Shown: positions 30,249 to 49,898, counted from the stretch's first letter. The stretch: DNA of 64,000 nt from Candidatus Tayloriibacteriota bacterium (GCA_031384385.1 JANNAN010000013.1:6015-70014); one strand, 5' to 3'. A program made the numbers and translations. The notes: generated by a model from the sequence alone, not told the origin.

Positions 30249-30626
30249 ATGACAGCAGAACAAACAGGAGTAATCAAAGATAAATTTATTCTAGAACTTA
30301 ATGAGCAGATTTGGCGTAAGGAAATGAATATCGCCTTTGACCTCAGTAAAATTCCAGATATTGAAAAACTCCGCGATGTTAGGTTCAAGGAACTTGATGG
30401 TCTTAATGCCGATCTAAAGCTCATAGATTCAACTGACACAACAAAACAGAGTCGAATAAAGAGAAAGGATCTAGAAAAGAAAATAGCCCTAGCTGAGGAT
30501 TTCACCTTGAAGTGTGATGAGACGATCGTTGTAATTAGAGACAATACCAATAAGGAAAAAGAAAAGGTTGACCAATTACAAGCCAGAATTAAATTCGCAG
30601 AAACCTATGGAATCGACAAAAATTAA
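30249..30626 (+). CDS. hypothetical coiled-coil protein
   Basis: 125 aa, charged/helical, no motif. Confidence 0.4.
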   Translation: MTAEQTGVIKDKFILELNEQIWRKEMNIAFDLSKIPDIEKLRDVRFKELDGLNADLKLIDSTDTTKQSRIKRKDLEKKIALAEDFTLKCDETIVVIRDNTNKEKEKVDQLQARIKFAETYGIDKN

Positions 30627-31300
30627 AATTAATGAGTTAAGACGAGCTGAGTATAACCCACGCATTATGCCAGAAAATGAAATGTCTGCGCTTAAGACAA
30701 GTATCAAGACCTTCGGCTTTGTCGAATCAGTAGTGGTAAATACCCACACCTGTGACCAATGTGGTGACAGAAAATGGGTACTGGTAGGGGGTCATCAGCG
30801 AACTACCGCCGTAGAGGGGCTTGTAGCACAAGGTGAAGCCATAAAAGGCATTGAAACCAAGGATGGAGTCACCCTCATTCCAGCCAACCTAGTTGATTTA
30901 CACCTTCCTGAAGAAAAGCTTTTGAATCTCGCCCTCAATAAAATCAAAGGAAAATGGGATGAGAAAAAACTCTTCGAAATTATTGTCGAGCTTAAGGAAT
31001 CACCATCCATTCCCGCTTCGGGATTTCGAGACGATGAGATCAGCCGAATACTCGATCAGACTCTTGAGGACGAGGAAGAGGATGAAGGTGAGGGCGACGG
31101 TGCCGACAAAGAACCTCGCTCAAAGCTTGGCGAAATCTATGAGCTCGGGTCCCACAGGCTCATATGTGGTGATTCAACAGATCCCGATACGTACAAAAAA
31201 CTTCTTGGAGAGGAAAGGGCTGATATGGTTTTCACTGACCCTCCATACAATGTGAACTATAAAAGTCGAGGAAATAAACTCAAAGAGGAAGGTAATGAGT
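30568..31300 (+). pseudogene. ParB-like nuclease domain fused to N4/N6 DNA methyltransferase, truncated after motif IV by IS insertion
   Basis: ParB-nuclease-like N-terminus (INELRRAEYNPRIM..GGHQR) and methyltransferase motif IV MVFTDPPYNV. Reading frame runs straight into the IS left inverted repeat at 31301. Catalytic motif I and TRD missing. Confidence 0.6.
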
Positions 31301-31369
31301 TGGCCCTCCCCCCAAATTTAATACACCAATCTTGTATAATTAATAGAAATAATTAAATATATAAGGAAT

Positions 31370-31627
31370 ATGAAAACACATAAAATATCACCAGAGTTAA
31401 AGGAACAAATAATTAACAGGGTAAAGAATGAAGGTATATCAGTAGCACAAGCAGTAAAAGATCATGGTGTATCTGATAACACAATATATGGTTGGATATC
31501 AAAGAAAGTAGAAGGACAACCTACATTAGCTGAAGTATTGAAATTAAGAAAAGAAAATGATGAATTGAAAAGACTTGTCGGTGATATCACATTGAAACTT
31601 TCTCTACCCCAAAAAAAGAAGTGGTAA
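31370..31627 (+). CDS. IS3-family transposase OrfA (HTH)
   Basis: 85 aa, helix-turn-helix GISVAQAVKDHGVSDNTIYGW, ends at the frameshift window. Confidence 0.7.
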   Translation: MKTHKISPELKEQIINRVKNEGISVAQAVKDHGVSDNTIYGWISKKVEGQPTLAEVLKLRKENDELKRLVGDITLKLSLPQKKKW

Positions 31628-32412
31628 CTGAATCTAAAACTCTCAGGGCCAGAGAGTTAGGTATATCTAGAAGTAGTCTGTATTACAAACAAAAGAAACC
31701 AGAGGAAGACTGGAAATTAAAATGTAAAATTGAAGAAATACTCCGAGAACATCCAAGTTATGGTTCTCCACGTATTGCCATAGCTTTAAAACGTAATCAT
31801 AAACCAATTGAAAGAGTGATGAAGCTCTTTGGTATTAAGGCATATCGTAGAAGAGGTAAGAAGTGGAAAAAAACTAAGAACATCAAGGTAGTATACCCAA
31901 ATCTTCTTTTAACAAATCATCCAATGTATGAGAATCATATCTGGGTATCTGACTTTACTTACATCCCATTTCAAGGAAAATTTGTATATGTTGCTACTGT
32001 TGAAGATTTGTTTACAAGAAAAATAGTTGGAGTGGCGGTATATACCACGCATGCTACACAATTGGTATTGTCAGCATTCATGTCTGCAATACATAACAAT
32101 CCTAGACCTCTAATATTCCATTCAGACAATGGAAGTGAGTATGATTCAGATATATTCATACATGCATTAAATACCGTTGGAGTTTCAATATCTAGATCAG
32201 CTCCAGGTTGTCCGTGGGAAAATGGATATCAAGAATCATTCTATGATAAATTTAAAATTGATTTAGGTGATCCTAGTAGATTCAAGACTCTTGGAGAATT
32301 AGTATATGAAATCTATCATCGTATTTATGTTTACAACAATACTAGAATACATACAGCACTTAAAATGTCTCCAGTTCAATTTGCATTAAAAATTCGTCAG
32401 GGATACAATTAA
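31621..32412 (+). CDS. IS3-family transposase OrfB (DDE integrase core), expressed as OrfAB by -1 frameshift
   Basis: In -1 frame relative to orfA. rve-type DDE motifs. Confidence 0.7.
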   Translation: MVTESKTLRARELGISRSSLYYKQKKPEEDWKLKCKIEEILREHPSYGSPRIAIALKRNHKPIERVMKLFGIKAYRRRGKKWKKTKNIKVVYPNLLLTNHPMYENHIWVSDFTYIPFQGKFVYVATVEDLFTRKIVGVAVYTTHATQLVLSAFMSAIHNNPRPLIFHSDNGSEYDSDIFIHALNTVGVSISRSAPGCPWENGYQESFYDKFKIDLGDPSRFKTLGELVYEIYHRIYVYNNTRIHTALKMSPVQFALKIRQGYN

Positions 32413-32509
32413 CTCAATACAAGATTAGTGTCTAAAGAAATGGGGGAGGTACATTCTCTCAAAAGAACTCGCCACACATCTCACGGGTAGACATATTCCC
32501 ATAGAAATA

Positions 32510-33343
32510 TTGCCATTCGATTTCAAAGAGATTTTGAAAGCTAAGCAGTATGAATATTCAGCAGACAAAATGTTGTTACCCGAGGAAAAAGCTAAACTTC
32601 AGGGATACATAACTCAATACATGACAAATGGCGGCTTTCCAGAAGTTGTCACAAAAGATGTTGAACCTCGTGGCTATCTTGATGTACTCTTTGATGCAGT
32701 GCTTTTCAAAGATGTCATAAAGCGTCACAAGGTCCGCTTCTCAAAACAGATAGACAATCTTGGATCGTATTTGATAAATAATGTTTCAAGTCAGTACACT
32801 GCTAGAAAACTTGCTAGCGTTCTCACATTCAAGAGTGACGTTACTGTGGCAAAATACCTTGATTATTTGATTGAGGCATACCTAGTTTTCTCCTTGGATC
32901 GTCATTCGACCAAAGCTACTATGAGATTACAGCTGCCAAAGAAAACCTATGTGGTAGATAACGGCCTCGTTACTGCCAAGGCGGTTCAGCATTCTCCTAA
33001 TAGTGGTAAGCTAATGGAGAATCTCGTATTTATGGAACTTGTAAAAAGAGGACATCAGCCAAACCGTGAATTGTTCTACTACAGGACTCGTAACGATCGA
33101 GAGATAGATTTTGTACTTAAAAAAGGGCATGAGGTGGTCGAACTGCTACAGGTTTCCTATGATTCTACTAGCCAGGATGTTGAGGAGAGAGAAGTAAAGG
33201 CACTAGTTGAGGCAGCTGAGGAATTGAAAGTCACGAAGCTCACTGTACTCACTTGGAATGAAAAGAGGGAAATGAAGAAGGACGGAATGACGATACAGTT
33301 TATTCCACTTTGGGAATGGCTAACAAATAATTCTAACGAGTAA
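32510..33343 (+). pseudogene. C-terminal fragment of an AAA-ATPase with DUF4143-like domain (5' part removed at IS boundary)
   Basis: Frame is open back to the IS right end (..SKELATHLTGRHIPIEILPFDF..) with no ATG. Downstream sequence (ELFYYRTRNDREIDFVL, GHEVVELLQVSY) resembles the DUF4143 C-terminal module of AAA ATPases. The AAA domain itself is absent. Confidence 0.45.
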
Positions 33344-33347
33344 AATT

Positions 33348-33878
33348 ATGGTAGGGATTATTTTTGAAGCACATGGCACGACATTTGATAACGAAGCACA
33401 CCTTGCCTCTGGTCACTTTGATGTCGAACTTTCTCCTCTCGGTATTAAACAGTCTCAAGAAATGGGAGAAAGGTACAAAGATGAGCACTTTGAGATAATT
33501 TTCTGCTCGGATTTGCAAAGATCATATAAAAGTGCGGAGATTGCATTCGGCAATAGGTTTCCGATTGTGAAAGATGCACGATTGCGAGAATGCGACTATG
33601 GTGATTATACTCAACAACCTAGCGAAATAGTTGATCGACAAAAACCACAGAGAATTCATGAACCCTTTCCTAAAGGAGAAAGCTATGAGCAAACTACAGA
33701 AAGGATGAAGGCATTTCTCGAGGATCTTAGGAAGAAATGTGAAAACAGGAGAGTTATGATTATAGGTCATAGAGCCACTCAGTACGCACTCGAAAATCTT
33801 ATAAAGGGTGTTCCACTCGAAGAAATTATTCCTGCACCATGGAAATGGCAGCCGGGATGGAAGTATGAGTTGGAGTAA
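33348..33878 (+). CDS. histidine-phosphatase superfamily (phosphoglycerate-mutase-like) protein, noncanonical AHG instead of RHG
   Basis: IIFEAHGTTFDN..ELSPLG..IIFCSDLQRS..IIGHRATQYAL matches branch-1 histidine phosphatase layout. The Arg of the RHG motif is Ala. Confidence 0.55.
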   Translation: MVGIIFEAHGTTFDNEAHLASGHFDVELSPLGIKQSQEMGERYKDEHFEIIFCSDLQRSYKSAEIAFGNRFPIVKDARLRECDYGDYTQQPSEIVDRQKPQRIHEPFPKGESYEQTTERMKAFLEDLRKKCENRRVMIIGHRATQYALENLIKGVPLEEIIPAPWKWQPGWKYELE

Positions 33879-33888
33879 GTATTAAAAT

Positions 33889-34278
33889 ATGGAAAAGAAA
33901 TTCAAACATTTAGAATTTATCCAGTCAGTCATTAATAGAATGACAAACAATTCTTTTTTACTGAAAGGTTGGTGTTTGAGTATAATTGGAGCAATTTTTG
34001 CACTTAGAGGTGGAAATTCCTCAACCAGCATACTTCCACTCTTTGTAATTATGTTTTGGCTTCTAGATAGTTATTATCTTTCTCAGGAGAGACTATTTAT
34101 TGCTTTATATAACGACGTCGTTCCTAGATCAGAGGATAAAATCGATTTCTTAATGCATACAAAAAAGTTTTGTAGAGGAAGAAACACATGGTGGAGATCA
34201 TTTTTTTCTCATACCCCTGTGATTTTCTACGGATTTATTTTGATCGTAATCATATTTATTAATTCTAATTCTATATAG
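33889..34278 (+). CDS. small 3-TM membrane protein (candidate membrane effector partner of the downstream TIR protein)
   Basis: 129 aa. Amphipathic N-terminal helix then three hydrophobic helices. 10 bp after the phosphatase gene and 4 bp before the TIR-like gene. Confidence 0.5.
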   Translation: MEKKFKHLEFIQSVINRMTNNSFLLKGWCLSIIGAIFALRGGNSSTSILPLFVIMFWLLDSYYLSQERLFIALYNDVVPRSEDKIDFLMHTKKFCRGRNTWWRSFFSHTPVIFYGFILIVIIFINSNSI

Positions 34279-34282
34279 ATTT

Positions 34283-34768
34283 ATGGCAAGAAAAGTATTT
34301 TTTAGTTTTCATCATCAGGGCGACATATTGAGGGTAGGGCAGATTCGTAATAGCTGGCTTCTTAGAGATGAGCGCGAGGATCTGGGCTTCGTAGATGCGG
34401 CAGCATGGGAATCAATTAAAAGAAATGGTGATGAGGCTATAAAGCGATGGATCGATACTCAATTAAGTGGAACATCTGTTACGGTTGTGTTGATTGGACA
34501 AGAAACTGCTAGTAGACCGTGGGTCATTCATGAGATCATTGAGAGTCATAATAAAGGAAATGGGCTTTTGGGTATAAGAATACATAATGTTAAAGATTTG
34601 CACGGTCGCTACTCACTCCAAGGATCTAACCCGTTCGATCAAGTAAGTATCACTTCTACAGGTAAATCCTTGTCTCAAATTTACCCTGTCTATGACTGGG
34701 TAACAAACAATGGACGTGAAAATATGCCTATTTGGATAGAAGAAGCTGCACGAAAAGCGAGCAGATAA
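34283..34768 (+). CDS. TIR-like domain protein of the DUF1863 / Thoeris ThsB-like family
   Basis: MARKVFFSFHHQGDILRVGQIRNSWL..FVDAAAWESIKRNGDEAIKRWIDTQLSGTSVTVVLIGQETASRPWVIHEIIESHNKGNGLLGIRIHN..SNPFD follows the conserved ThsB/DUF1863 signature (KxVFFSFH, W..D..L..VL.G.T..WV..EI..G...GI.I). Confidence 0.65.
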   Translation: MARKVFFSFHHQGDILRVGQIRNSWLLRDEREDLGFVDAAAWESIKRNGDEAIKRWIDTQLSGTSVTVVLIGQETASRPWVIHEIIESHNKGNGLLGIRIHNVKDLHGRYSLQGSNPFDQVSITSTGKSLSQIYPVYDWVTNNGRENMPIWIEEAARKASR

Positions 34769-35317: not shown

Positions 35318-35386
35318 TTGAGTAGAAATTAATCAAACAAAAAAGCGTTGGTCAGACGCTTTGAAATTTTATGACCTGAGGAACTG

Positions 35387-36045: not shown

Positions 36046-36118
36046 TTCCGATTTCGTCCTCGTTCTCTACCACAAGGCAGAGGGACTCATCAGCGAGAAT
36101 AACATTCTCGGATCGAAA
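36046..36118 (-). ncRNA. hammerhead ribozyme (type III topology) HHR-1
   Basis: Minus-strand RNA: UUUCG-AUC|CGAGAAU..AUUCUCG-CUGAUGA-GUCCC..(extended stem II)..GAGGAC-GAAA-UCGGAA. CUGAUGA and GAAA cores, AUC cleavage triplet, three closing stems. Confidence 0.75.
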
Positions 36119-36124: not shown

Positions 36125-36574
36125 TTAGAGAACCTTTGAAACTCTTGATACCGCTACTATGCCAACGAATACGCACCAAATGGCAAGAAAGACGAAACAG
36201 AGTAGCACGACCGTTTTGCTTCTTCCATCGCCATATGCACAGTACAAGTCTGATCTTAGACCAGCTTCTTCATACATATAGAAGAATGAGCAGAAGATTA
36301 TCCACAGAAATGCAAATGATGCTGTCGTTGATACCATACCGTTGGTGATAAGCACGATCGTTCCAATGGGTATGAACCAAGAGGACCAGCTAATGACACC
36401 ATCGTACGGCAGAAGGTGATAGAGCATCCAAGCAGTTGCGCCTCGCCTTGGGTCCCACAGTACATTGCTGTACTTGCGGGAGTACTGATACAAACACCAC
36501 CATGTAACTGACAGTGTCCAAAGCAGAATAATAATCGTAATTTTCACAAAGAACTCCTTTCTCAAAGAATCCAC
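36125..36574 (-). CDS. hypothetical 4-TM membrane protein
   Basis: 149 aa with four hydrophobic helices. Confidence 0.45.
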   Translation of the reverse strand: MDSLRKEFFVKITIIILLWTLSVTWWCLYQYSRKYSNVLWDPRRGATAWMLYHLLPYDGVISWSSWFIPIGTIVLITNGMVSTTASFAFLWIIFCSFFYMYEEAGLRSDLYCAYGDGRSKTVVLLCFVFLAIWCVFVGIVAVSRVSKVL

Positions 36575-36637
36575 GACTTCATGTCATGAACTCTATAAAG
36601 TGGACATTTGAGGAAAATGTCCGAACCCCCGATTTGC

Positions 36638-37495: not shown

Positions 37496-37524
37496 TCGTT
37501 TCTCTTTCGTTGTTGATTGTTATG

Positions 37525-37603
37525 TAAAGAACTGAACTCTCAGGGTTCGCGACATCAGTCGTAAACCCAGTTGAGTCCCTGTAACCATTGCTAGTCACAG
37601 GGG
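37525..37603 (-). ncRNA. family-1 structured element E1 (two-hairpin motif, unknown class)
   Basis: Minus-strand: hairpin2-ACUCAACUG-GGUUUACGAC-UGAU-GUCGCGAACCC-UGAGAGUUCAGUUCUUUAC. Shares linear motifs and covarying 11-bp hairpin with six other copies. Confidence 0.55.
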
Positions 37604-37623
37604 TTGAGTGAGATTTCAGGTAC

Positions 37624-37983: not shown

Positions 37984-38013
37984 AGTTTTTATCTCCTGGT
38001 TTGATTGTTGATG

Positions 38014-38092
38014 TAAAGAACTACTGAACTCTATAGATTCACAACACATTCGTTATGAATCTAATAAAGTCGGGGAGGTTTTTGAAGTCTCC
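38014..38092 (-). ncRNA. family-1 structured element E2
   Basis: Minus-strand 11-bp perfect hairpin AGAUUCAUAAC-GAAUGU-GUUGUGAAUCU flanked by ACUUUAUUA and AGAGUUCAGUAGUUCUUUAC. Second hairpin GGAG..CUCC. Confidence 0.55.
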
Positions 38093-38148
38093 TCGATTTT
38101 GAAAGTTTTAGACTTGCGTCACCGTTACTTCACGGAGTGGGTTGACCA

Positions 38149-38361: not shown

Positions 38362-38424
38362 AAGAATAGTCTTTCTGTACTGGTGTATTGTTTCGGCACA
38401 CCTACTTGAAGCCGTTTTATATTC

Positions 38425-38504
38425 CAAAGAACTGAACTCTGAGAGCTCACAACGGATTTGTTGCGAACTCAGTAAAGTGCTCATTTTAGGTGAATGAGCA
38501 AAAC
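38425..38504 (-). ncRNA. family-1 structured element E3
   Basis: GGUUUUGCUCAUUCACCUAAAAUGAGC-ACUUUACUG-AGUUCGCAAC-AAAUCC-GUUGUGAGCUC-UCAGAGUUCAGUUCUUUG. Compensatory changes relative to E7 (G-C to A-U). Confidence 0.55.
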
Positions 38505-38517
38505 CGAATCGAGCAAA

Positions 38518-38925: not shown

Positions 38926-38980
38926 TATTTCGTTTCTTTCTTGGTTGAGTTTGTTTGTGATTACTAAATTTGAAAGAGCT

Positions 38981-39029
38981 TTCTGTTTCGTCCTTCTGGA
39001 CTCATCAGTCGGAATACATTCCGAGACAG
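38981..39029 (-). ncRNA. hammerhead ribozyme HHR-2
   Basis: Minus-strand: CUG-UC|UCGGAA-UGUA-UUCCGA-CUGAUGA-GUCC-AGAA-GGAC-GAAAC-AGA. Minimal ~49-nt hammerhead with GUC triplet. Confidence 0.8.
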
Positions 39030-39099
39030 TCGGTCAGTAAAAATTTACCGACCATTCACACAATTTTTAGGTAGTGTGCGTACCTCTATGTGGTAGAAC

Positions 39100-39390: not shown

Positions 39391-39416
39391 ATATATAAAG
39401 AGCAGTCGTTGTTGTG

Positions 39417-39497
39417 TTCTGTTTCGTCCTTCACCTTGGCTTCGTCTGAAGCACAAGGGGACTCATCAGTACAGATTATATCTGTAGACAGAAGGGG
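39417..39497 (-). ncRNA. hammerhead ribozyme HHR-3 (extended stem II)
   Basis: Minus-strand: CCCCUUCUG-UC|UACAGAU-AUA-AUCUGUA-CUGAUGA-GUCC-(long imperfect stem II CCUUGUGCUUC..GAAGCCAAGG)-GGAC-GAAAC-AGAA. Confidence 0.75.
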
Positions 39498-39576
39498 CTA
39501 GATTTAAATCTTGCCCCATTTTATGACAATTCTTGAGCAGGTAGTCATCATACCTTCTAGCACTGCATGCCAGCCT

Positions 39577-39641
39577 CACCATTTCAAACGGTGACATTCA
39601 CACTCTTCTGTAACAAAGGTTAGAGTGATCCTTTGGTAGTC
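39577..39641 (-). ncRNA. family-3 conserved element (copy a), downstream of stop codon
   Basis: ~65-bp block CACCAUUUCAAACGGUGACAUUCACACUCUU..AAGGUUAGAGUGAUCCUU..GUAGUC, ~85% identical to 41206-41275. Contains CACACUCU/AGAGUGAU inverted repeat. Confidence 0.45.
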
Positions 39642-39651
39642 TTTCCTACAG

Positions 39652-40017
39652 TCAGATGCCGCAGAGCGAACGTATCTTGCAAATTTCCCTCAATGTCTGT
39701 TGACGTCCCGGAAGTCCATTCTCAACCCATCCTCCAAATTGCTTCAGAGTGGTGAGAATTTCTTCCCGAGTGCCAGGTTCCCCGATACAAATGGGGATGA
39801 ACTGACGTTTGTCTTCAGACTTAGCGAGGAACTTGCAAGCGATCGGTATTGAGGATTTCACCTGAACCACGGGGATGGTGTTGTCATTGGTAGTGACATC
39901 CAATCCGTGATCATTGAAACCTCCGATTACCTGTACGCCAAATACTTTGGCGTACGCTTTCTCTAGCTCGGCACCGACGAATTCCTTCGTCACTCCCATG
40001 GTTTTCATAGAGTTCAT
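39652..40017 (-). CDS. hypothetical protein
   Basis: 121-aa ORF, no motif. Confidence 0.4.
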   Translation of the reverse strand: MNSMKTMGVTKEFVGAELEKAYAKVFGVQVIGGFNDHGLDVTTNDNTIPVVQVKSSIPIACKFLAKSEDKRQFIPICIGEPGTREEILTTLKQFGGWVENGLPGRQQTLREICKIRSLCGI

Positions 40018-40064
40018 AATATTATGAGATGTGGTACCGAGTTAGGCACCGTTGTTGTTTACTG

Positions 40065-40328
40065 TTATCCGTAGGTGACCGATGACTGTCGCAGAGATCG
40101 AATGAGAACAGGGAAGATGAGTAACGGATGCTTAAGCATGAATTTTGCTTTTTCTTTGCCTTGAAGGTGTCGAGCTGCGATGAGAAGAACAACTTCTCGG
40201 CTCATCGCTTCTTGACCCTCCACCTTGCATTCCGTAAATATCTTCTGAGCCTTTTCGTCTCCTTGGTGTCGCCTGACGCGATCCAGAATATCAGTAAGTA
40301 ACATTTGGTATTTCGTGTTGTTTTTCAC
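40065..40328 (-). CDS. hypothetical protein
   Basis: 87-aa ORF, helical, no motif. Confidence 0.35.
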   Translation of the reverse strand: MKNNTKYQMLLTDILDRVRRHQGDEKAQKIFTECKVEGQEAMSREVVLLIAARHLQGKEKAKFMLKHPLLIFPVLIRSLRQSSVTYG

Positions 40329-40494
40329 AAAGAGCTTTCCTCAATGAATCCACCAGGTCCAGCACACGCTGGCTGACGGACTCAATAAAGGACTTTTTTC
40401 AATACTTCTACGATGTTACTATTATAGCATAGTATATACTACTTGTCCAGTGTATTGTTAAATATAATGAACAGGGAAGTATGGCTTATTTTAA

Positions 40495-40546
40495 GGCTGC
40501 TTTCGTCGTTTTCGACTCATCAGTCTGGACAATATCCAGAGAGCAG
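40495..40546 (-). ncRNA. hammerhead ribozyme HHR-4
   Basis: Minus-strand: CUGC-UC|UCUGGA-UAUUG-UCCAGA-CUGAUGA-GUCG-AAAA-CGAC-GAAA-GCAG. Stem II GUCG/CGAC is a compensatory variant of GUCC/GGAC. Triplet CUC. Confidence 0.75.
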
Positions 40547-40596
40547 AGGTTGATTCCGTACAATCAACCTGATTAATGTGAATGCGGTTCGGCGCA

Positions 40597-40914
40597 TTAT
40601 TGACCCTTCAGAAAGGCCATCGCTTCGATCAATCCCATCCCGTGTGCCATTTTGCCATCGGGAAATGAATTGAAGATCTTGAAGCGATCAGATTCAGGAA
40701 TGGTGGCGGCTTTCTGTTTCCACCACAGAACCTGTGCAACGCGCTTGGATGTATTGTCCAAATACACCTGCACTTTTTCTGGTTCATCGGTCATGATGCC
40801 GTCGGCTTCCTGAACCGTCTTCACAAACTCCAAACCCCCGATAGTTGTGAAGATCTGAACGATTGCCTTATGGACAGGACTGTCCGGCGTCGCAAGATCC
40901 AGAAATATTTTCAT
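40597..40914 (-). CDS. hypothetical protein
   Basis: 105-aa ORF, overlaps upstream small gene by ATGA. Confidence 0.4.
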   Translation of the reverse strand: MKIFLDLATPDSPVHKAIVQIFTTIGGLEFVKTVQEADGIMTDEPEKVQVYLDNTSKRVAQVLWWKQKAATIPESDRFKIFNSFPDGKMAHGMGLIEAMAFLKGQ

Positions 40915-41051
40915 ACCTCTTTCCTCCAGTTTTGTTTTTGTTTGTTGCGGTTGTATCCACGGACACCTTTCGGAGTTCCGTAGGGTTTACCGATGAAAAG
41001 AGTTTGCTTGCGCACACTCTTCATCGCCTTCAACTGAATTGTATTGTTCAT
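40911..41051 (-). CDS. 46-aa basic protein (upstream partner in a two-gene cassette)
   Basis: MNNTIQLKAMKSVRKQTLFIGKPYGTPKGVRGYNRNKQKQNWRKEV. Track ORF extends further 5' into ribozyme-flanking sequence. Confidence 0.3.
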   Translation of the reverse strand: MNNTIQLKAMKSVRKQTLFIGKPYGTPKGVRGYNRNKQKQNWRKEV

Positions 41052-41118
41052 AGTAATCTGCCACTGATGATCGCGTGAGTGGCAAGTTGCTATGAACAAT
41101 ATTTTATTTAAAGAACTT

Positions 41119-41172
41119 TTCTGTTTCGTCCTTTCGGACTCATCAGTCGAGACTCGCATCTCGAGACAGAAC
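41119..41172 (-). ncRNA. hammerhead ribozyme HHR-5 (near-consensus)
   Basis: Minus-strand: UUCUG-UC|UCGAGAU-GCGA-GUCUCGA-CUGAUGA-GUCC-GAAA-GGAC-GAAAC-AGAA. GNRA loops on stems I and II, GUC triplet. Confidence 0.85.
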
Positions 41173-41205
41173 GAATCCTTTGATCCGTAGCGCTGCACGC
41201 CAACT

Positions 41206-41275
41206 CACCATATAGATACGGTGACATTCACACTCTTTTGAATAGAAGGTTAGAGTGATCCTTCTTTTTGTAGTC
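41206..41275 (-). ncRNA. family-3 conserved element (copy b)
   Basis: See 39577-39641. Lies between stop of 41289-41705 and HHR-5. Confidence 0.45.
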
Positions 41276-42065: not shown

Positions 42066-42088
42066 AAATTCTACTTGTTGATTGTTTG

Positions 42089-42169
42089 AAAAGAACTGAA
42101 ATTCTATGAATCTGCGACTTCAGTCGTAGACTCAATAAAGTGCAGATTTTGATGGAATCTGCTAAAACC
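42089..42169 (-). ncRNA. family-1 structured element E4
   Basis: GGUUUUA-GCAGAUUCCAUCAAAAUCUGC-ACUUUAUUG-AGUCUACGAC-UGAA-GUCGCAGAUU-CAUAGAAUUUCAGUUCUUUU. Confidence 0.55.
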
Positions 42170-42852
42170 TGACCTCTAGCAATAGTGATCCACACGGATC
42201 GTATTGAAAGAGTAATCCCACCGACTCCCCGAGTACCTCTGATATCTCCACTTTCGTGAAAGTGTCAGTAGGCGACTGCGCTCTCGCTTGGAGAGCCGAC
42301 GACCTGTGTCGTCTGCGAACTTCAGTGTTCGCGATCTCCTTCTGTGGGAGATATCGAGTACACCATCGGTGGTGCTCGATTTTACAGGCTTAAAGCCAGG
42401 AAACTGCACCGTTGCACTACCGTATGATGTACTCATATTTTTATTTCGGTTGGTTGTTTTTGAAATATTCGCAGTTCGGAATCACCATGAATGTTCCTTG
42501 ACCAGGTACACACTCACAACTATCCGATGATGTATAAGAGATGGGGTTGTTATCCCGCATGAGGTTATGCCTCTAATCTCCCGTACACCTTGTTCTTTCC
42601 AGGGATGCATGCCCACGTAACGAACGTGGATTGGTCGAGCATTCCCTTTCGACAACAACCTTTCGGTTGAGGTGAAAGAACTAGAGCCCTACAAAATTCT
42701 GCCAATCTACTGAAAACCCTTGCAAGTTTTCTAAGTAATCGGAGCTAGAACAGTGTAGACCCCACACAATGGCTTCTGCGTAGCCTGTGCATATAACTGT
42801 CCTTAATAATTAATTCAGACCAATTATATGCACAAGCATTTCAAAATTTATT

Positions 42853-42931
42853 TAAAGAACTAAACTCTTTGGGCCAGCAACATTGTTGTAAGCCCAATAA
42901 AGTGCAGATTTTGATGGAATCTGCGAAAACC
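42853..42931 (-). ncRNA. family-1 structured element E5
   Basis: Same hairpin-2 sequence as E4 (GCAGAUUCCAUCAAAAUCUGC). Hairpin 1 GGGCUUACAAC-AAUG-UUGCUGGCCC. Not followed by an ORF for >400 nt. Confidence 0.5.
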
Positions 42932-43005
42932 ATTTGCTTTTCGGGGTTGATTATTGTCCGATAGCAGTGCGACTCTTTTTTGTTAGGAAAAGAGCTAGAG
43001 AAACC

Positions 43006-43804: not shown

Positions 43805-43859
43805 TTCTGTTTTCGTCTTTCAAGACTCATCAGTCGGAATACATATTCCGAGAACAGAG
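43805..43859 (-). ncRNA. hammerhead ribozyme HHR-6 (1-nt insertion at cleavage triplet)
   Basis: Minus-strand: CUCUG-UUC|UCGGAAU-AUGU-AUUCCGA-CUGAUGA-GUCU-UGAA-AGAC-GAAAAC-AGAAG. Stem II GUCU/AGAC compensatory variant. Extra U and extra A suggest a slightly degenerate copy. Confidence 0.65.
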
Positions 43860-44294: not shown

Positions 44295-44301
44295 TTTAAT
44301 T

Positions 44302-44380
44302 TAAAGAACTGAAATCTATGAATCTACGACTTCAGTCGCAGACTCAATAAATTGATCATTTGAGGATTAATGATCAAACC
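44302..44380 (-). ncRNA. family-1 structured element E6
   Basis: Fills the whole intergenic space. Hairpin 2 UUGAUCAUU..AAUGAUCAA (different sequence, same fold). Hairpin 1 AGUCUGCGAC-UGAA-GUCGUAGAUU. Confidence 0.55.
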
Positions 44381-44381
44381 G

Positions 44382-44636
44382 TTACCCCATTTTGCACCGC
44401 AGGATTTTGCGGCAACCTCTTGCGAGAAGGTCACTCAGCCATGCTGCCCAGAGCGAACGTCGCCAGAAGCGCCGAAGCAGAAGGTATATAACCAGCGCCT
44501 CGATCACCAACGCTACCACAAGACACACGAGTGTCAGACAGTAGACGAAGGTTTCCGGAAATATTTGCCCCAGAGTAGCCTGCGTAAGTTTGTAGAGCAT
44601 TTCCATGCTCTGTCGCATTATTTCATTGAGTTGCAT
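44382..44636 (-). CDS. hypothetical small membrane protein
   Basis: 84 aa with one long hydrophobic helix. Confidence 0.4.
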   Translation of the reverse strand: MQLNEIMRQSMEMLYKLTQATLGQIFPETFVYCLTLVCLVVALVIEALVIYLLLRRFWRRSLWAAWLSDLLARGCRKILRCKMG

Positions 44637-44700
44637 AGTGAGCGAAGCTCAATTCTTGAGCGTCATTCACTACACAACTCTAATGTAAAGAACCGCAGAA

Positions 44701-44775: not shown

Positions 44776-44783
44776 ATTTTTAT

Positions 44784-44862
44784 TAAAGAACTGAACTCAA
44801 TGGATTCACAACATCAGTTGCGAACCCAATAAAGTGCTGATTTTGAGAAAATCAGCGAAAAC
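44784..44862 (-). ncRNA. family-1 structured element E7 (most upstream copy)
   Basis: GGUUUUCGCUGAUUUUCUCAAAAUCAGC-ACUUUAUUG-GGUUCGCAAC-UGAU-GUUGUGAAUCC-AUUGAGUUCAGUUCUUUAAU. Confidence 0.55.
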
Positions 44863-45540
44863 TGCGCGCGATGCCTCATCCTAAGATCACCGTTAGGTGA
44901 TAGCCAGTTATTCAGCAAAGCTGTTACTGGTGATGAAAGCTGGTGGAGGCTCAATGGCCACAACCATCACATTTTTATTTAAGGCTGTGTACACCCACTC
45001 CAATTTGTCCTTGGAGTATTCATGATTATTTTTTCGTACCCTCATGACTGGACGGAGTGGACTAGCAGGTAGCTGTTGCTACGACTTGATGTGTCAAATT
45101 CCCGAAGGAACCAAGACTTCCATCATCTGCTATCCACCCATATTTTTTAGGTACTATGGGGTCGCGACACTCCCTGTACCATATTTAAATCCAAATTATT
45201 TTGATTCAAATACGGTACAAGGAGAAAAACTTATTTCAAGTGAACTGTTTACATGTCAATCGTTCTGGGGTGTAGTATAGCAGATACAATAATTTTGTCA
45301 AGTATAATTAACACTTTATACCTAAATACAGCAAATATAGCCCTATAAATATGGATATTTAAGCTATATAAGAGTTATCAAGAAGTGACATATTATAAAT
45401 AATTTTGACAAAGTCAAAATGTAATTTGAAATAAAATATTTCTGTTAAACAATAAAAACATGATAAAAAGGCATAAAATGAATGTTTTCTTGTATCTATG
45501 GCTTAAAATATGGGGTTTATTATGAAAATGACAATAAAAC

Positions 45541-45937: not shown

Positions 45938-46696
45938 TTACGGTTGGAGCCTCTTCTTTTTCTCATCAAAGCCAACATTGAAGATACTTCTGAATGTTTC
46001 TGCGAATTCCTTACTTCTTATAAAAATACCAGAAAGTTTTTTGCCAAGAATTGCAATTTTAACACGGTCTTCACAGATTGATATATCACATAATATTGGA
46101 TACTTATCTGCATCTACCTTCACCCTCTCACCGTCTTCACTTGTAGGGACTTCTCCATTTTTGTAAGTATACATTACTTTAGATTTGATGTTTTTACCTA
46201 GGCGCATACCTCGATATCTATCTCGCTCTTGTTTCGAAAATATTTCATCAACTAGATCCTTTGAGTATATTAAATAGCTGATGGCGTTTTCATTTTGTCC
46301 AAGAAAAAACTCTTCATGTAGACTTACCAATCCATCTCGACCTTCAAAATATTTTACGATAGGTTTTTCACCACCCTCTCTCTGAACACTCTTTATTTGA
46401 GGAATGACATCCTTTAATTTCTTTGACTGTTCATCAAGCATTATTTTTCGCTGCTCAACATATGTCTCTAATCTTTCTGGCGGCTCAGCTTGGTAATGAG
46501 TTTTCTTGCCAACTGTGGTTTCGGTCACCAGACCTTTTTTTGCAAGAGATTCCAACACGACATAGGTAGTCGATCGATTTAATTTGGTCTTTTTTGAGAG
46601 ATCAAGCACAGAGCTGTTCTCCATAGAAAGCAATGATATATAAACAATTGCCTCCTTCTCGCTCAGCCCGATGTCTTGTAGGTATTTTTCCAACAT
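45938..46696 (-). CDS. TrmB-family transcriptional regulator
   Basis: N-terminal HTH LGLSEKEAIVYISLL..SVLDLSKKTKLNRSTTYVVLESLAKKGLV typical of TrmB. AT-rich host-like composition. Confidence 0.6.
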   Translation of the reverse strand: MLEKYLQDIGLSEKEAIVYISLLSMENSSVLDLSKKTKLNRSTTYVVLESLAKKGLVTETTVGKKTHYQAEPPERLETYVEQRKIMLDEQSKKLKDVIPQIKSVQREGGEKPIVKYFEGRDGLVSLHEEFFLGQNENAISYLIYSKDLVDEIFSKQERDRYRGMRLGKNIKSKVMYTYKNGEVPTSEDGERVKVDADKYPILCDISICEDRVKIAILGKKLSGIFIRSKEFAETFRSIFNVGFDEKKKRLQP

Positions 46697-46720
46697 GCGA
46701 TTATATTAACATTGAAATCC

Positions 46721-47023
46721 TTAAAACGGAAGGGTCCCTGATAACTGGGGTGGTTCAACGAGATATTTCTCAATCAAATAAATCTCCTGCAAAAGACTGA
46801 CATAGTGCTTCTCATCCAGCTCATCATTTTTGAATTCTACCTTCTGATTTCTTTCGTTCACTTCAAGATAGATTCGACGTTTCTTATCACCAAAATCATA
46901 TAGTGTGAGTATGGTAAAAGATCCATCAAGTTTTTCGTTATACCAGATGATGGCATACTCGCCACGCCAGATGTGAGCATTTTTTCTTGCATCTTTAAAC
47001 GGATCAATGTTATACAAAGGCAT
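46721..47023 (-). CDS. hypothetical protein
   Basis: 100-aa ORF co-directional with the TrmB-like gene. Confidence 0.4.
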   Translation of the reverse strand: MPLYNIDPFKDARKNAHIWRGEYAIIWYNEKLDGSFTILTLYDFGDKKRRIYLEVNERNQKVEFKNDELDEKHYVSLLQEIYLIEKYLVEPPQLSGTLPF

Positions 47024-47119
47024 GTGGTATAATTACCATACTAATTCAAAAGTAAGTAATGTCCTTCAGCCAACTGGCAGATACTTTATGGGAGTAGAAG
47101 TAAATGATAATATATATCT

Positions 47120-47437
47120 ATGACTGACGAAGAAAAAAATGGAATATGGGCAGAACTAGAAAAAAAATCTCCTGATTTGATCAAGGCTTTTCTATCGCTT
47201 AAGAACGAAGATGAGCTAAAGGCATTTTTTAGAGATCTTATGAGTGAAAGAGATTTACGAGAGTTTGCGATGAGGTGGGAGGTGGCGAAGAAACTAGACG
47301 CCGGTACTCCATTTTCGCAGATTCAGGAAGAATCTGGTGAATCACCAGTAACAATCACAAAGATCAACCGATGGTTGAAGGAAGGTTGTGGTGGATATAA
47401 AATGATGATTGATCGACTCAATGGTGATCAAAAATAA
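47120..47437 (+). CDS. YerC/YecD-family TrpR-like protein
   Basis: FAMRWEVAKKLDAGTPFSQIQEESGESPVTITKINRWLKEGCGGYKMMIDRL matches the YerC/YecD helix-turn-helix family signature (RW.VA..L..G..Y..I...G.S..TI.R....L..G.GGY). Confidence 0.6.
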   Translation: MTDEEKNGIWAELEKKSPDLIKAFLSLKNEDELKAFFRDLMSERDLREFAMRWEVAKKLDAGTPFSQIQEESGESPVTITKINRWLKEGCGGYKMMIDRLNGDQK

Positions 47438-47519
47438 TTCGCACTTCCGCAAATTAAAGTATAGACTAAGGATTGATTCAGTCAGTTCTTTTTAACAACT
47501 CAACCAAAGGGAGGCTCCC

Positions 47520-48518
47520 ATGCAAACAGTCGATCAGACTCATGGGACCTACGTGGTTACCTATGATGTCGCTAGTCGCATTCAATCATTCCGCTCGAAA
47601 GGTTTTCATGTCCCGAATCAAAATGATTCAATGTTCGATAGATTCCACCTGCGTCTTCTTGAAACGATGCAAGATGCTCTACCAGGTGTGATGATTGACT
47701 CTATTGATATGAGCAAGCTTCGGCTTGAAATCTGGGAACAGGTGGAGGGTCGAATGGTAGATCTCAATCGTCAGGCTGTTCTCAGTACATGCCCAGAAAT
47801 CGCTGATTCGAATCCTAAAAGCGAGGGTTTGTTACTTAACGTCAACCGACTGTTCGACAAGAACGGACAGTTGATTGGGTACGGTCCTCGTCCTGGATTT
47901 GAATTGTTGACAAATCAACTTGATAAATTGGCAAGAAAAATTGCCGGCCGATCCGTCATTCTCATCGAGGACGGCGCATTTACTGGTGGCACTCTCAGCT
48001 TTGTTTTGAAGGAGCTCGAGAGTCGAGGTATTAAGGTCACTGCCATAATTATTGGTTTCTGCTGTAATGGCTCGCGAACTGTTCTCCGGAAGGCGTTCAG
48101 TGAAGAGCTTGTTATGGTACATCCGGTCACTGATTTGGTGGACTGGATTCCTGACCATGATCTCATTCCGTTCATTCCGAATTGTGGACGTGTCCTCGGT
48201 GAACATTCGATGCAAGGCTATATGCCGATCCGAACGGTCAGTGGTTTCAGTTGTGCTTATCCCTACATTCTTCCTTTCGGCAGGATCGAGGAGTGGGCGA
48301 GTCTACCGGACGAAGGCGCTCGAGCTGTATCGAGACTTTGTCTTGATACTAGTATCGAAATCTTCAGCCATGTAGGGTGTAAAATCACGATAGGAAAGCT
48401 TCTGGAACTGAATCCGAGGGTCTCATTGCCTATCAGGATCGGTTCTCATGAGGTGTTGCCTGCCTTGGATATGGAGATTGTTAGCTTTTTGAAGCAGATG
48501 CGAGAAAAGCTAGAATAG
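47520..48518 (+). CDS. phosphoribosyltransferase-domain protein (type I PRTase fold with N- and C-terminal extensions)
   Basis: AAGGGAGG RBS. PRPP-binding loop VILIEDGAFTGGTL. Function of extensions unknown. Confidence 0.5.
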   Translation: MQTVDQTHGTYVVTYDVASRIQSFRSKGFHVPNQNDSMFDRFHLRLLETMQDALPGVMIDSIDMSKLRLEIWEQVEGRMVDLNRQAVLSTCPEIADSNPKSEGLLLNVNRLFDKNGQLIGYGPRPGFELLTNQLDKLARKIAGRSVILIEDGAFTGGTLSFVLKELESRGIKVTAIIIGFCCNGSRTVLRKAFSEELVMVHPVTDLVDWIPDHDLIPFIPNCGRVLGEHSMQGYMPIRTVSGFSCAYPYILPFGRIEEWASLPDEGARAVSRLCLDTSIEIFSHVGCKITIGKLLELNPRVSLPIRIGSHEVLPALDMEIVSFLKQMREKLE

Positions 48519-48540
48519 ACCTCCTATTTTCCATGAAAAA

Positions 48541-48577
48541 TCAGTCGCATTGCTCAAAAGGTAGTGCGATTTTTTTC
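48541..48577 (+). terminator. rho-independent terminator
   Basis: TCGCA..TGCGA hairpin followed by TTTTTTT. Confidence 0.5.
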
Positions 48578-48890
48578 TAAATTGTCATTAAACCCTTATT
48601 CTTGTTGACATAATAGATATTTTACTCTGCATATTACTATCCAATGAAATATCCTTCTTGACAATGGTTAAGCACTACACTAGGATGTAGTGACAACCGA
48701 ATATGAATCCATTGCCCCGAAAGGGATCAGGCCATAGTGGCCGGATGCTACCGATGGACTTTTGATTAACATTGCCTTGCTATTTCCAAAAAGATAGGGG
48801 AAAATGTAAATGATGTGGTCGCAAGACTACGTCTCCCTAGCTAGGGAATGACAAGACGCTCATTGAGCTGACAGCCACCAAAAGTCCACT

Positions 48891-49898
48891 TTGAGTAGCA
48901 TCGAGTGGGCTTTTTGGTTGGCTATTATGTTATTCAAAGATGCAATAAACGAATTCAGTGGCTGGAGACAGATCAAGGTTTCCGGTCACACAGTTATAAG
49001 ATACGATAAAGTATTGAAGATTTTTTGTCTGTACCTACGCAACCCACACATTGAAGCCATAACGCTCAATGATGTGATGAATTATTTGAATATGATGAAG
49101 GAGCTCGGATGGAAACGAAACGGCATAATAATTGTAACTTTGGCGCTAAAGAAATTCTTTGAGTTTTATAACTTGCAGAAGTTCAACGTAATCAATGAAT
49201 CTCTCATACCCACCCCTCGCAAAGAATACAACATACCACGCATCGCAACAGAGCAAGGATATAAAAAACTTATTAACTCGATACCGAAGGACAATAAACC
49301 ACATCACATTAGGAACCGCGCATTGATGGCTTTACTCTGGGATACTGGTGCTCGAAATGGGGAGATCATATCACTCAATGTAAGTGACCTTGATTTAAAC
49401 AAAAGGACTGCGTTGATCAGAACTGAAAAGTCCCGCGGACGTAGACCGATCCGTGAAATATTCTGGACACCGAGTACGAATGCGCTCTTGAAAAGATGGG
49501 TGAAGAAAAGAAAGTATTTGTTACAACTCTTCACCTTTGAAGATCTCGATTCATTATTTGTATCAATTTCTAAATGCGGTCAAAATGCTGTCAGGGGACG
49601 TAGAATGTCCGTTGTTGGTGTTGCTGAAATGTTGCGCACTAATTCTAACCGTGCAGGTATACCAACCTTGAATGCACACTCGATGAGACATTTCATGGGG
49701 CGAGATATTGTGAATAGGGGTGGATCAAATTCTGATGTCTCAAACATTCTTGGCCACTCTAGTCTAGAAAGTTCGATGATTTACACTATGATGACAGGTC
49801 CCGATCTTCACAGGAGATACGATATGTTTCGGGATGTGCCGAGGAACCAGAGAGCAAAGAAATATAAAATTCCCAGAACAAGAGCTATTCATTGCTAA
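48891..49898 (+). CDS. tyrosine site-specific recombinase / integrase
   Basis: 335 aa. Catalytic R..HxxR..Y region (HSMRHFMGR, ILGHSS, IYT). At the island end adjacent to displaced gap-terminus copies. Confidence 0.75.
   Translation: MSSIEWAFWLAIMLFKDAINEFSGWRQIKVSGHTVIRYDKVLKIFCLYLRNPHIEAITLNDVMNYLNMMKELGWKRNGIIIVTLALKKFFEFYNLQKFNVINESLIPTPRKEYNIPRIATEQGYKKLINSIPKDNKPHHIRNRALMALLWDTGARNGEIISLNVSDLDLNKRTALIRTEKSRGRRPIREIFWTPSTNALLKRWVKKRKYLLQLFTFEDLDSLFVSISKCGQNAVRGRRMSVVGVAEMLRTNSNRAGIPTLNAHSMRHFMGRDIVNRGGSNSDVSNILGHSSLESSMIYTMMTGPDLHRRYDMFRDVPRNQRAKKYKIPRTRAIHC

Follow-up and report, generated by a model that had tools for sequence, protein, structure and literature searches.

The window, by which we mean the whole analyzed stretch of 64,000 nucleotides (nt) from a Candidatus Tayloriibacteriota bacterium (GCA_031384385.1 JANNAN010000013.1:6015-70014), contains an operon of small genes whose spacers are occupied by self-cleaving ribozymes and other repeated RNA elements. 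An earlier note on this DNA had drawn attention to two recurrent features of these spacers, a short linear motif, AGUUCUUU, and a pair of ∼65-bp blocks (39577-39641 and 41206-41275), hereafter called the third motif, and had suggested a recognition or processing signal common to all cassette junctions. We found that AGUUCUUU is a conserved signal placed directly after self-cleaving ribozymes in a cassette-like operon that occurs across many ultra-small bacteria of the Candidate Phyla Radiation (CPR), and that the third motif is a structured RNA family, well supported and new relative to the families in Rfam 15.

The operon lies on the minus strand, from ∼45300 to 35340, in an island with a GC content of 38-48% (between ∼28 and 50 kb) within a backbone of ∼30% GC. 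The island carries genes for an integrase, a RepO-like protein, an AAA_24 ATPase, a ParB-like protein and an insertion sequence (IS)-type rve integrase, and a GAPDH gene stands at one edge. RepO, AAA_24, ParB-like and rve (IS) genes, together with TrmB, a PRTase-like gene and the integrase, were located in the two segments 28000-34768 and 45938-49898. On two related contigs GAPDH adjoins TrmB and the operon; together with the island edge in the window, this suggests a preferred integration locus. The operon comprises ∼17 small open reading frames (ORFs), with hardly any Pfam matches, and some non-coding payloads. A promoter-like site stands at its head, as do equivalent sites in the related operons L002 and L007, and a terminator-like hairpin at its end. 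A further promoter-like site (TGGACA-17-TATAAT with TG, 11 of 12 matches) was observed at 40449-40421 (-), between the hammerhead at 40548-40495 and a divergent family-1 element, and may provide a second start. As the six hammerheads recognized by Rfam all lie on the minus strand, this was taken as the transcribed strand, and all RNA sequences are given in its sense. The operon is one long transcript unit of ribozyme-punctuated cassettes, carried on an integrated element of a low-GC bacterium of the CPR/Patescibacteria type.

A 285-amino-acid (aa) CheY-like protein of the operon has homologues, and their contigs repeat the layout of a TrmB-family regulator, a ∼1.2 kb leader and small ORFs separated by hammerheads and twisters. 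In relatives the operon adjoins phage lysis- or tail-like genes (Amidase_2, LysM, Collar/Gp10_C), from which we conclude that the element is probably a prophage or a phage-derived island; a megablast search of the operon against phage and plasmid collections gave no match.

The payloads are separated by type III hammerheads and by a second repeated element, family-1; in relatives twisters also serve as separators. Rfam detected the six hammerheads in operon spacers. The one downstream of the second third-motif copy (copy B) scored above the gathering threshold, and four others had 36-40 bits with an intact core (Table 1). Family-1 consists of a hairpin P1 followed by an extended hairpin P2a/P2b; its helices covary, and it was 87.8% paired, as against 28-44% in slid controls. 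Because these helices contain many G-U pairs, family-1 is expected to function on the sense strand. A covariance model found nine copies in the window and 65 matches in 25 sources. No Rfam 15 family matched, and a search with E ≤ 10 on 196 nt around one copy returned noise only; a pattern scan of IMG/VR gave a single chance match, inside a coding region. Before orthologous genes family-1 fills the same slot as a hammerhead or a twister, and it is a candidate for a new processing element or self-cleaving class. Its identification as a hatchet ribozyme was rejected, since hatchet (PMC6561176) differs in helix layout and in the spread of its conserved segments, and a k-turn in its internal loop was rejected by eye, as tandem G-A pairs are lacking.

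Table 1. Positions of RNA elements and operon features in the window
Feature	Position	Strand	Details
Promoter-like site, operon head	45274..45301	-	TTGACA-16-TATACT, TG-extended, 11/12 matches
Family-1	44779..44864	-	89.4 bits; tail GUUCUUU 44791-44785
GUUCUUU after palindrome 44775-44701	44687..44693	-	
Family-1	44297..44382	-	81.2 bits; tail GUUCUUU 44309-44303
Hammerhead, then degenerate tail	43805..43859	-	RF00008, 37.3 bits; tail GUUUCUUG (43804-43797)
Family-1	42848..42932	-	81.5 bits; tail GUUCUUU 42860-42854
Family-1	42084..42170	-	82.9 bits; tail GUUCUUU 42096-42090
Stop codon of 138-aa ORF upstream of copy B	41291-41289	-	
Third motif copy B, core	41187..41265	-	Covariance model 72.6 bits, E 5.6e-16
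Copy B, P1	41265-41260 / 41249-41244	-	
Copy B, pseudoknot	41257-41252 / 41236-41231	-	
Copy B, P3 and P4	41223-41206; 41201-41189	-	
Hairpin between copy B and hammerhead	41171..41188	-	ACGGAU-CAAAGG-AUUCGU; also at L017:3326
Hammerhead downstream of copy B	41118..41172	-	RF00008, 49.6 bits (gathering 48.5)
GUUCUUU 2 nt past hammerhead stem III	41110..41116	-	..GAAACAGAAAAGUUCUUUAAAU
Hammerhead with different stem III (GCAGCC)	40495..40548	-	RF00008, 35.7 bits; no tail motif
Divergent family-1	40323..40419	-	35.3 bits; tail GCUCUUU 40335-40329, directly before GUG start
Stop codon (UGA) of 121-aa ORF upstream of copy A	39654-39652	-	
P0 hairpin just after stop of 121-aa ORF	39636..39649	-	GUAG-GAAAGA-CUAC
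Third motif copy A, core (P1, pseudoknot, P3, P4)	39557..39635	-	Covariance model 76.3 bits, E 6.5e-17
Copy A, P1	39635-39630 / 39619-39614	-	CAAAGG/CCUUUG
Copy A, pseudoknot strands	39627-39622 and 39606-39601	-	CACUCU (in P1 loop) and AGAGUG
Copy A, A-rich linker, P3 and P4	39613-39607; 39593-39577; 39571-39559	-	
Second pseudoknot module, downstream of copy A	39555-39523	-	AGGUA-UGAUGAC-UACCU...GUCAU
Hairpin abutting hammerhead stem III, downstream of copy A	39517-39494	-	GGGGC..GCCCC; with the second module spans 39494..39555
Hammerhead downstream of copy A, long stem II	39416..39494	-	RF00008, 40.1 bits, E 1.3e-5
GCUCUUU variant	39397..39403	-	18 nt past hammerhead 39494-39416, 8 nt before AUG
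Hammerhead, then GCUCUUU (38979-38973)	38980..39032	-	RF00008, 39.9 bits
Family-1	38420..38507	-	76.1 bits; tail GUUCUUU 38432-38426
Family-1	38012..38102	-	49.1 bits; tail GUUCUUU 38021-38015
Family-1	37520..37605	-	58.5 bits; tail GUUCUUU 37532-37526
Family-1	36542..36630	-	59.0 bits; tail GUUCUUU 36554-36548
Weak hammerhead match	36052..36112	-	RF00008, 24.3 bits, E 0.4; no tail motif
Terminator-like hairpin and U-tract, operon end	35342..35362	-	

The GUUCUUU junction motif

On the sense strand of the 10-kb operon GTTCTTT was observed 11 times against 0.8 expected (14-fold; first-order Markov model, maximum 4 in 300), while both strands of the whole window held 30 copies against 17.9 expected. 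Of 39 G[AUC]UCUUU words in the backbone, 38 were inside coding regions and one was intergenic. Intergenic backbone DNA is practically free of the motif, which is not a general 5' untranslated region (UTR) feature of the genome. It was also found at the sites named there: after a hammerhead, after the large palindrome and at the 3' ends of family-1 elements. Eight of the GUUCUUU copies in the window are the 3' tails of family-1 elements, and G[AUC]UCUUU ends 50 of the 65 family-1 matches. Among 38 non-redundant hammerheads in CPR loci, 21 had UCUUU starting 7-11 nt after the core GAAA (binomial P 1.3e-14), that is 2-4 nt past stem III, and most of the remaining ones carried degenerate versions. 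GUUCUUU followed at once after all three twister-P1 matches. Overall, the distance of (A)GUUCUUU from the closing helix is 0-4 nt, whether the element is a hammerhead, a twister or family-1, and this was seen in at least 15 genomes from several CPR phyla. When the sites were anchored on CUUU only, the preceding positions were A in 82%, G in 92%, U in 63% (otherwise A or C) and U in 95%, and an A-rich, G-poor tract followed. GUUCUUU opens this tract, which is the leader of the next payload.

The earlier note had placed all of these sites shortly upstream of start codons. This was true of 11 of the 15 G[AUC]UCUUU sites, with spacings of 0-65 nt; the sites at 44791, 42995, 42860 and 42681 are exceptions, one of them more than 400 nt from a start codon, and the motif also precedes non-coding payloads. 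Since its spacing is fixed relative to the upstream helix and variable relative to the start codon, the motif belongs to the upstream element and not to the start codons. A terminator consensus scan flagged two motif sites (38449-38433 and 44709-44694) and three family-1 P1 hairpins followed by ACUUUAUUG. The helix bases at these places are purine/pyrimidine-rich and not GC-rich, and the operon continues past them.

The closeness of most sites to a start codon, and the region just downstream of the motif, which in folding was the least structured part of the junction, agree with a site read as single-stranded RNA. AGUUCUUU might then be a cleavage or entry site for an RNase Y or RNase E/G-type endonuclease (AG↓UUCUUU, cut after the G within a U/A-rich stretch that adjoins a structure) or a site for an RNA-binding protein such as a cold-shock-domain chaperone, and would trim or mark the 5' ends of payloads and so control their stability or translation. 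The motif core UCUUU(A/G) is that of the best ligand of Bacillus subtilis CspB, d(GTCTTTG/C) on a DNA microarray and GUCUUUA in the crystal structure (PMC7825780), but no csp gene was found in the window and the related sequences examined. An RNase Y gene is present on the relative L004. The bases A, G, (U/A) and U at positions -4 to -1 resemble the RNase E consensus RN↓WUU and the preference of RNase Y for G. The predicted accessibility of the motif is only average, however, and its occurrence before non-coding payloads, its fixed distance to the upstream helix and its absence from backbone 5' UTRs also speak against such a role, which we regard as rather unlikely.

Stem III of the hammerheads is conserved in sequence (UUCUGUC/CAGAA) in most copies across genomes, rather than merely covarying, and hammerheads with another stem III (GCAGCC, UCGGAA, CGGAAU) have no GUUCUUU tail. 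This unusual conservation would be understandable if GUUCUUU were a decoy of the pyrimidine-rich, substrate-side strand of the closing helix, of which it could be a copy in each element type (UUCUGUC in hammerhead stem III, UCUUU^AAU in twister P1, ACUUU in family-1 P2a). After cleavage the decoy would pair with the purine strand (CAGAA/AGAG), displace the 5' product and make cleavage irreversible; before cleavage it could tune activity. CUUU can indeed pair with AGAG or AGAA in all three element types, and one case looks compensatory (L058 11902, where CGGAA is followed by GUUCCUU). Nevertheless, such a helix would have only 3-4 bp and, in most hammerheads, a loop of just 2-3 nt, partition-function folding showed no dominant local pairing, and the link with the type of stem III is explicable by common descent of hammerhead-plus-tail units. 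A decoy function therefore seems improbable.

The third motif

The two blocks, which the earlier note had described as ∼85% identical, shared 58 of 71 alignment columns (82%); with their flanks the identity was 81% over 106 columns, and a repeat search recovered 46 nt at 89%. The inverted repeat seen in them, CACACUCU/AGAGUGAU, is real and corresponds to CACUCU/AGAGUG on the minus strand. As CACUCU lies in the loop of the CAAAGG/CCUUUG stem, the repeat forms an H-type pseudoknot rather than a plain hairpin. The whole element measures ∼80 nt. A 6-bp stem, P1, closes a 10-nt loop, AUCACUCUAA, and is followed by a 7-nt A-rich linker and by AGAGUG, which is complementary to the CACUCU of the loop; UGAAU, a hairpin P3 (CACCG...GGUG) and a small hairpin P4 complete the layout. 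With P4 the conserved element is longer than the block originally noted. P1 reads CAAAGG/CCUUUG in copy A and AGAAGG/CCUUCU in copy B, a difference of two compensatory changes, and the change in P4 from GGCAUGCAGUGCU to GGCGUGCAGCGCU is compensatory as well.

The minimum-free-energy folds of single copies did not reach significance (z -0.8 to -1.4), and the pseudoknot is outside what RNAfold can represent; single-sequence folding was thus uninformative and relatives were needed. A search pattern derived from P3 and P4 was scanned over one genome per species and gave 44 loci, about half of which were discarded as chance matches in genomes of 61-79% GC without P1 and the pseudoknot. The remaining 18 loci were all from metagenome-assembled genomes of CPR/Patescibacteria (Taylorbacteria, Parcubacteria, Saccharibacteria, Nomurabacteria and unclassified bacteria). 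Upstream of the search pattern all 18 showed P1 together with a loop and a strand complementary to it. Because neither P1 nor the pseudoknot belonged to the pattern, their covariation is unbiased, while P3 and P4 are partly ascertained. In an alignment of 21 sequences 96.7% of the cells were paired, as against 30-51% in slid controls, and covarying pairs were found in P1 (4 of 6), the pseudoknot (3 of 4) and P4 (2 of 4). P1 was 93.6% paired, with the four covarying pairs changed on both sides, and the pseudoknot 98.8%; pair 12-40 of the latter, for example, was AU in 10 sequences, GC in 10 and CG in one. The 17 distinct loop/strand duplexes were all complementary, so that the loop of the stem 1 hairpin pairs with a downstream strand, with covariation, as in an H-type pseudoknot.

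A covariance model found 28 copies in 23 sources, all of them CPR/Patescibacteria contigs, and built from the relatives it found no third copy in the window. Four of the 28 depart from the pattern, having CACA/UGUG as P4, the loop UGUAG, GUGAA for GUGAG, or an extra hairpin. No Rfam 15 family matched the third motif (4227 models; E ≤ 1 over 26 kb, and noise only at E ≤ 10 on 201 nt around copy A), nor were there Rfam matches on this element or on family-1 in the related loci. Exact-pattern scans of IMG/VR for the third motif, with a narrow or a general pattern, gave nothing.

The third motif always lies 3' of a payload, either a non-coding RNA or an ORF from one of various families, and what comes 24-105 nt downstream of it is a hammerhead cleavage site, a family-1 element or a terminator. 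Downstream of the 28 copies there were 12 hammerheads, about 10 family-1 elements and three rho-independent terminators, and usually a hairpin directly abuts the stem III of the hammerhead. In the window each block stands between a stop codon and a hammerhead, just as the earlier note had it. The position of the upstream stop codon ranges from ∼30 nt ahead of P1 to within its loop (within the loop in L035, L040 and L052), and in L058 (2367-2800), L007 and L002 the third motif ends non-coding payloads. The many unrelated upstream families, the variable position of the stop codon and the non-coding payloads show that it serves neither as a riboswitch nor as a recoding signal and is tied to no particular gene; it is a generic, optional 3'-end module of a unit. 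A riboswitch or 5' leader was rejected on the same placement 3' of unrelated ORFs and non-coding payloads, and on the three copies before terminators. A pseudoknot for read-through or frameshifting was rejected, as the spacing to the stop codon is not fixed and the next in-frame codons at copy A are CUG UAG. Of the proposed signal common to all cassette junctions, the part that holds is GUUCUUU, which is shared, selected and found after hammerheads, twisters and family-1 alike; a role of it in processing is putative. The third motif, present at only 2 of about 17 operon junctions here, differs in kind from this junction signal and is a separate module.

Further small structures surround the third motif. 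Ahead of 11 of the 28 copies there is a hairpin P0, whose GAAAGA loop is invariant while its stems vary; copy A has it and copy B does not. It is itself preceded by CUGAC(U/A)G, which holds the stop codon. Its loop and the UCUUU of the junction motif are complementary; since the loop never varies, no covariation accompanies this possible pairing. The second pseudoknot module downstream of copy A has homologues, GGGAA-..CGAC-UUCCC-GAGAAAAAAUA-GUCGC, with covarying stems in about half of the relatives, and copy B is without it. A third type of pseudoknot in these operons was observed in another conserved 5'-UTR element, GGCUUCAAGUAGGUGUGCC..(A-rich)..ACACCAGUACAGAAAGA, at ∼38412-38365 (-) in the window and in L004 (∼7790), L007 (∼6525), L023, L025 and L026, in which the hairpin loop GGUGU can pair with a downstream ACACC.

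The third motif occurs where self-cleaving ribozymes cluster, and it was this logic that led to twister and later to further classes (PMC6765202). It might accordingly be catalytic itself, as a new self-cleaving class, or a ligand sensor that gates the adjacent hammerhead, and its many invariant unpaired nucleotides and loosely pistol-like architecture would fit either role. No pistol or other ribozyme or riboswitch of Rfam matched it, however, even at E ≤ 10 on 200 nt; three copies stand directly before terminators; its position 3' of unrelated genes leaves no common regulated gene; and another processing element is always alongside, which would make self-cleavage redundant. We give both possibilities little credence.

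Cassette turnover between related loci

The idea of cassettes is supported by the comparison of relatives, which differ by whole units whose ends fall within repeated RNA elements. This was seen in the close relatives L054 and L056 (77-86% identity) and L058 (up to 97%). Compared with L054 (∼9379-9382), the window has an extra unit, 39487-39030, that consists of a hammerhead body, a leader and a 118-aa ORF, and the junction falls at CUGU↓, where two successive hammerheads have their cleavage site. In this single case the unit of gain or loss thus coincides with the unit of RNA processing; recombination between repeats offers the simple explanation. L058 lacks 42894-42171, by recombination inside two family-1 copies that share an identical stretch of 40 nt. 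Conversely, L058 has ∼520 nt (a non-coding RNA, the third motif and a hammerhead) between the palindrome and (G)UUCUU, a segment that the window has lost; GGUUCUUUACA follows the palindrome here because it is the tail of the lost hammerhead junction. The palindrome itself (44775-44701, minus strand) is near-perfect (GUGUCUGCACUAU...AUAGUGCAGAUAC) and conserved in L002, L004, L007, L017, L054 and L058; in relatives it starts a ∼450-nt non-coding payload that ends in the third motif and a hammerhead and is deleted in the window. A supposed pair of cassette variants from gene calls, L007 and L008, was rejected, as their DNA is identical.

Processing elements are also exchanged in front of the same gene. 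The gene for a 105-aa protein is preceded by a hammerhead and the motif in the window and in L007, and by a twister and the motif in L002; an ORF for a basic 46-aa protein is preceded by a hammerhead and the motif in the window, and by family-1 and the motif in L058. The motif therefore stays when the upstream element before orthologous genes is swapped. The 46-aa ORF (41052-40911, minus strand), which encodes a very basic protein (MNNTIQLKAMKSVRKQ...NRNKQKQNWRKEV) and is kept in L058, overlaps the start of the 105-aa gene by ATGA.

Several payloads are non-coding. A leader RNA of ∼380 nt directly follows the promoter in the window (45260-44870, minus strand), L002 (4830-5290), L007 (∼400-700) and L058 (∼1790-2200). 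Its 5' hairpin (GGUACAGGGAGU...ACCCCAUAGUAC) is conserved and Rfam gave no match; in L002 it has twister ribozymes on both sides, as if it were excised as a free RNA. Reading through the leader RNA revealed no complement (AAAGAAC) of GUUCUUU. Between a family-1 copy and the gene for an 86-aa protein, ∼400 nt without a convincing ORF (42850-42440, minus strand), with an isolated GUUCUUU at 42681-42675, probably form another non-coding payload.

A more far-reaching interpretation would be that the operon is an array of RNA-defined cassettes whose units of evolution are the units of ribozyme processing, with AGUUCUUU and the third motif as 5' and 3' end modules of excised, possibly circularized or exchangeable RNAs, and with family-1 as a new self-cleaving or processing class. 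The unit that distinguishes the window from L054, which extends from hammerhead site to hammerhead site, stands behind this interpretation. As stem III (UUCUGUC/CAGAA) is identical across copies, the 3' end of an excised unit could pair anew with the hammerhead body that forms the 5' end of that unit. Viroid-like RNAs and retrozymes circularize by such re-pairing of the 3' end, and the same geometry would be possible for the hammerhead-bounded units here. We nevertheless consider this extended version improbable.

The gain and loss of cassettes between close relatives, with breakpoints in repeats, could also point to DNA. The junction motif and the family-1 palindromes would then be recombination sites of the attC type, or functionless repeats that hitch-hike with duplicated cassettes, and the small, same-strand ORFan genes, a GC content unlike that of the backbone and nearby tyrosine recombinase genes would be in keeping with this. 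GTTCTTT, however, does not fit the attC core GTTRRRY, nor does AAAGAAC fit RYYYAAC, and between the array and the recombinase gene (48891-49898) there are 3.6 kb that hold TrmB and two other genes. The G-U pairs of family-1 are C-A mismatches on the other strand, and hammerheads and twisters, after which the motif is likewise found, act as RNA. The breakpoints lie inside repeats (the identical 40-nt stretch; CUGU at the cleavage site) and not at GUUCUUU, and hitch-hiking does not agree with 8 nt conserved across phyla beside unconserved leaders. Both DNA-based explanations appear very improbable.

Proposed function and relation to known systems

We tentatively favor a joint reading in which the third motif would be a protective or insulating fold at 3' ends and UUCUUU a NusG-type pause signal. 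Hammerhead cleavage would leave an upstream RNA that ends with the third motif, a hairpin and UUCUGUC>p. The third motif and the hairpin abutting stem III would form the 3'-terminal fold of this released RNA and could protect it against 3' exonucleases, and the third motif may in addition insulate the folding of the ribozyme from the upstream coding sequence. On the non-template strand, TTCTTT directly behind a helix would constitute a NusG-type (TTNTTT), hairpin-assisted pause site. While the 3' strand of the closing helix emerges from the exit channel, RNA polymerase would be held at the pause, and the processing element would have time to fold and cut ahead of competition from downstream RNA.

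Published NusG pauses have the non-template-strand motif -11 TTNTTT -6 (bioRxiv 10.1101/2022.10.28.514324). Exactly TTCTTT is the pause sequence of two B. subtilis riboswitches, fmnP and lysP; the lysP site is just downstream of the aptamer and its pause is abolished by the change TTCTTT to TTCAAA, and at fmnP a pause hairpin is found 11-12 nt upstream (PMC11602163). The junction motif agrees with TTNTTT: most sites read UUCUUU, and among natural variants the final three U's change least.

Several observations weigh against this joint reading. With 0-4 nt between the end of the helix and the G, the distance from the helix to the predicted pause would be ∼14-16 nt and not 11-12 nt, and the conserved A-G before UUCUUU is outside the published NusG motif. 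RNAfold predicted the motif to be neither specially unpaired nor paired with a constant partner. About a third of the hammerheads and 15 of the 65 family-1 matches have no good motif, and the third motif is scarce at the junctions of this operon. The sequence of the third motif is strongly conserved (GAAGG/CCUUC, CAGAAG, UGUCACC, UGCAG loop), which hints at a specific partner or chemistry and not at a generic protective fold. A pro-pausing role of the NusG of CPR bacteria is putative, and the functional steps (ends, pausing and stability) are all inferred.

It has been a question for a decade why hammerhead and twister ribozymes cluster together and with particular small genes (PMC6765202), and the present family of loci offers a concrete anatomy of such a cluster: a strong promoter, payloads that open with a ribozyme or family-1 followed by AGUUCUUU, some of which close with a pseudoknotted 3' module, interchangeable ribozyme classes before orthologous genes, and cassette turnover between close relatives. 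The third motif also adds to the sparse catalogue of CPR/Patescibacteria RNAs. If AGUUCUUU is indeed a pause signal, transcription kinetics would be tuned to ribozyme folding. Our literature search found nothing on hammerheads in CPR/Patescibacteria, nor on a constant AGUUCUUU tail.

Several known systems share some of these features. Arrays of integron attC sites likewise consist of small, promoterless, same-strand ORFan cassettes with imperfect palindromic repeats and a content that varies between close relatives. An attC site was rejected here, as the core consensus is not matched, no intI or attI is adjacent, and the repeats are G-U-paired RNA structures and bona fide ribozymes. Pistol resembles the third motif in that a 5' hairpin loop takes part in a downstream pseudoknot of 5-6 bp, in a further hairpin and in other ribozymes nearby; the third motif differs in the linker and the conserved nucleotides and has an extra hairpin, P4. 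Its assignment to pistol was rejected, because no P2 helix encloses the pseudoknot strand and there is no Rfam pistol match. Protective folds at RNA 3' ends include bacterial 3' stem-loops and triplex or pseudoknot stabilizers such as ENE and those of the xrRNA type. Common to them and the third motif are, in general, a location at the 3' terminus of a mature RNA and a compact pseudoknot with an A-rich strand that crosses a conserved helix; there is no homology in sequence or architecture, and a protective role of the third motif is putative.

For the junction motif, the CspB ligands GUCUUUA and d(GTCTTTG/C) have the same pyrimidine-rich UCUUU(A/G) core, presumably single-stranded, while GUUCUUU has one extra U; cold-shock proteins have limited sequence selectivity (PMC7825780). 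The NusG pause sites of fmnP and lysP likewise have TTCTTT just downstream of a folded RNA, with a helix upstream, and pausing there aids folding (PMC11602163; 10.1101/2022.10.28.514324). Here the folded RNA is a ribozyme or family-1 instead of an aptamer, A-G is added, and the helix is 1-5 nt further upstream.

A further comparison is with the neighborhoods of bacterial hammerheads and twisters from which twister-sister, pistol, hatchet and the RAGATH motifs are known. The third motif and family-1 match no Rfam 15 family, including the deposited RAGATH motifs and ribozymes, a comparison that covers deposited motifs only. In the published view the exact ribozyme class is unimportant and the reason for the association with genes is unknown (PMC6765202). 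As in those neighborhoods, mixed ribozyme classes are found here among small genes on a mobile or phage-like element, and the same spacers hold further conserved structured RNAs.

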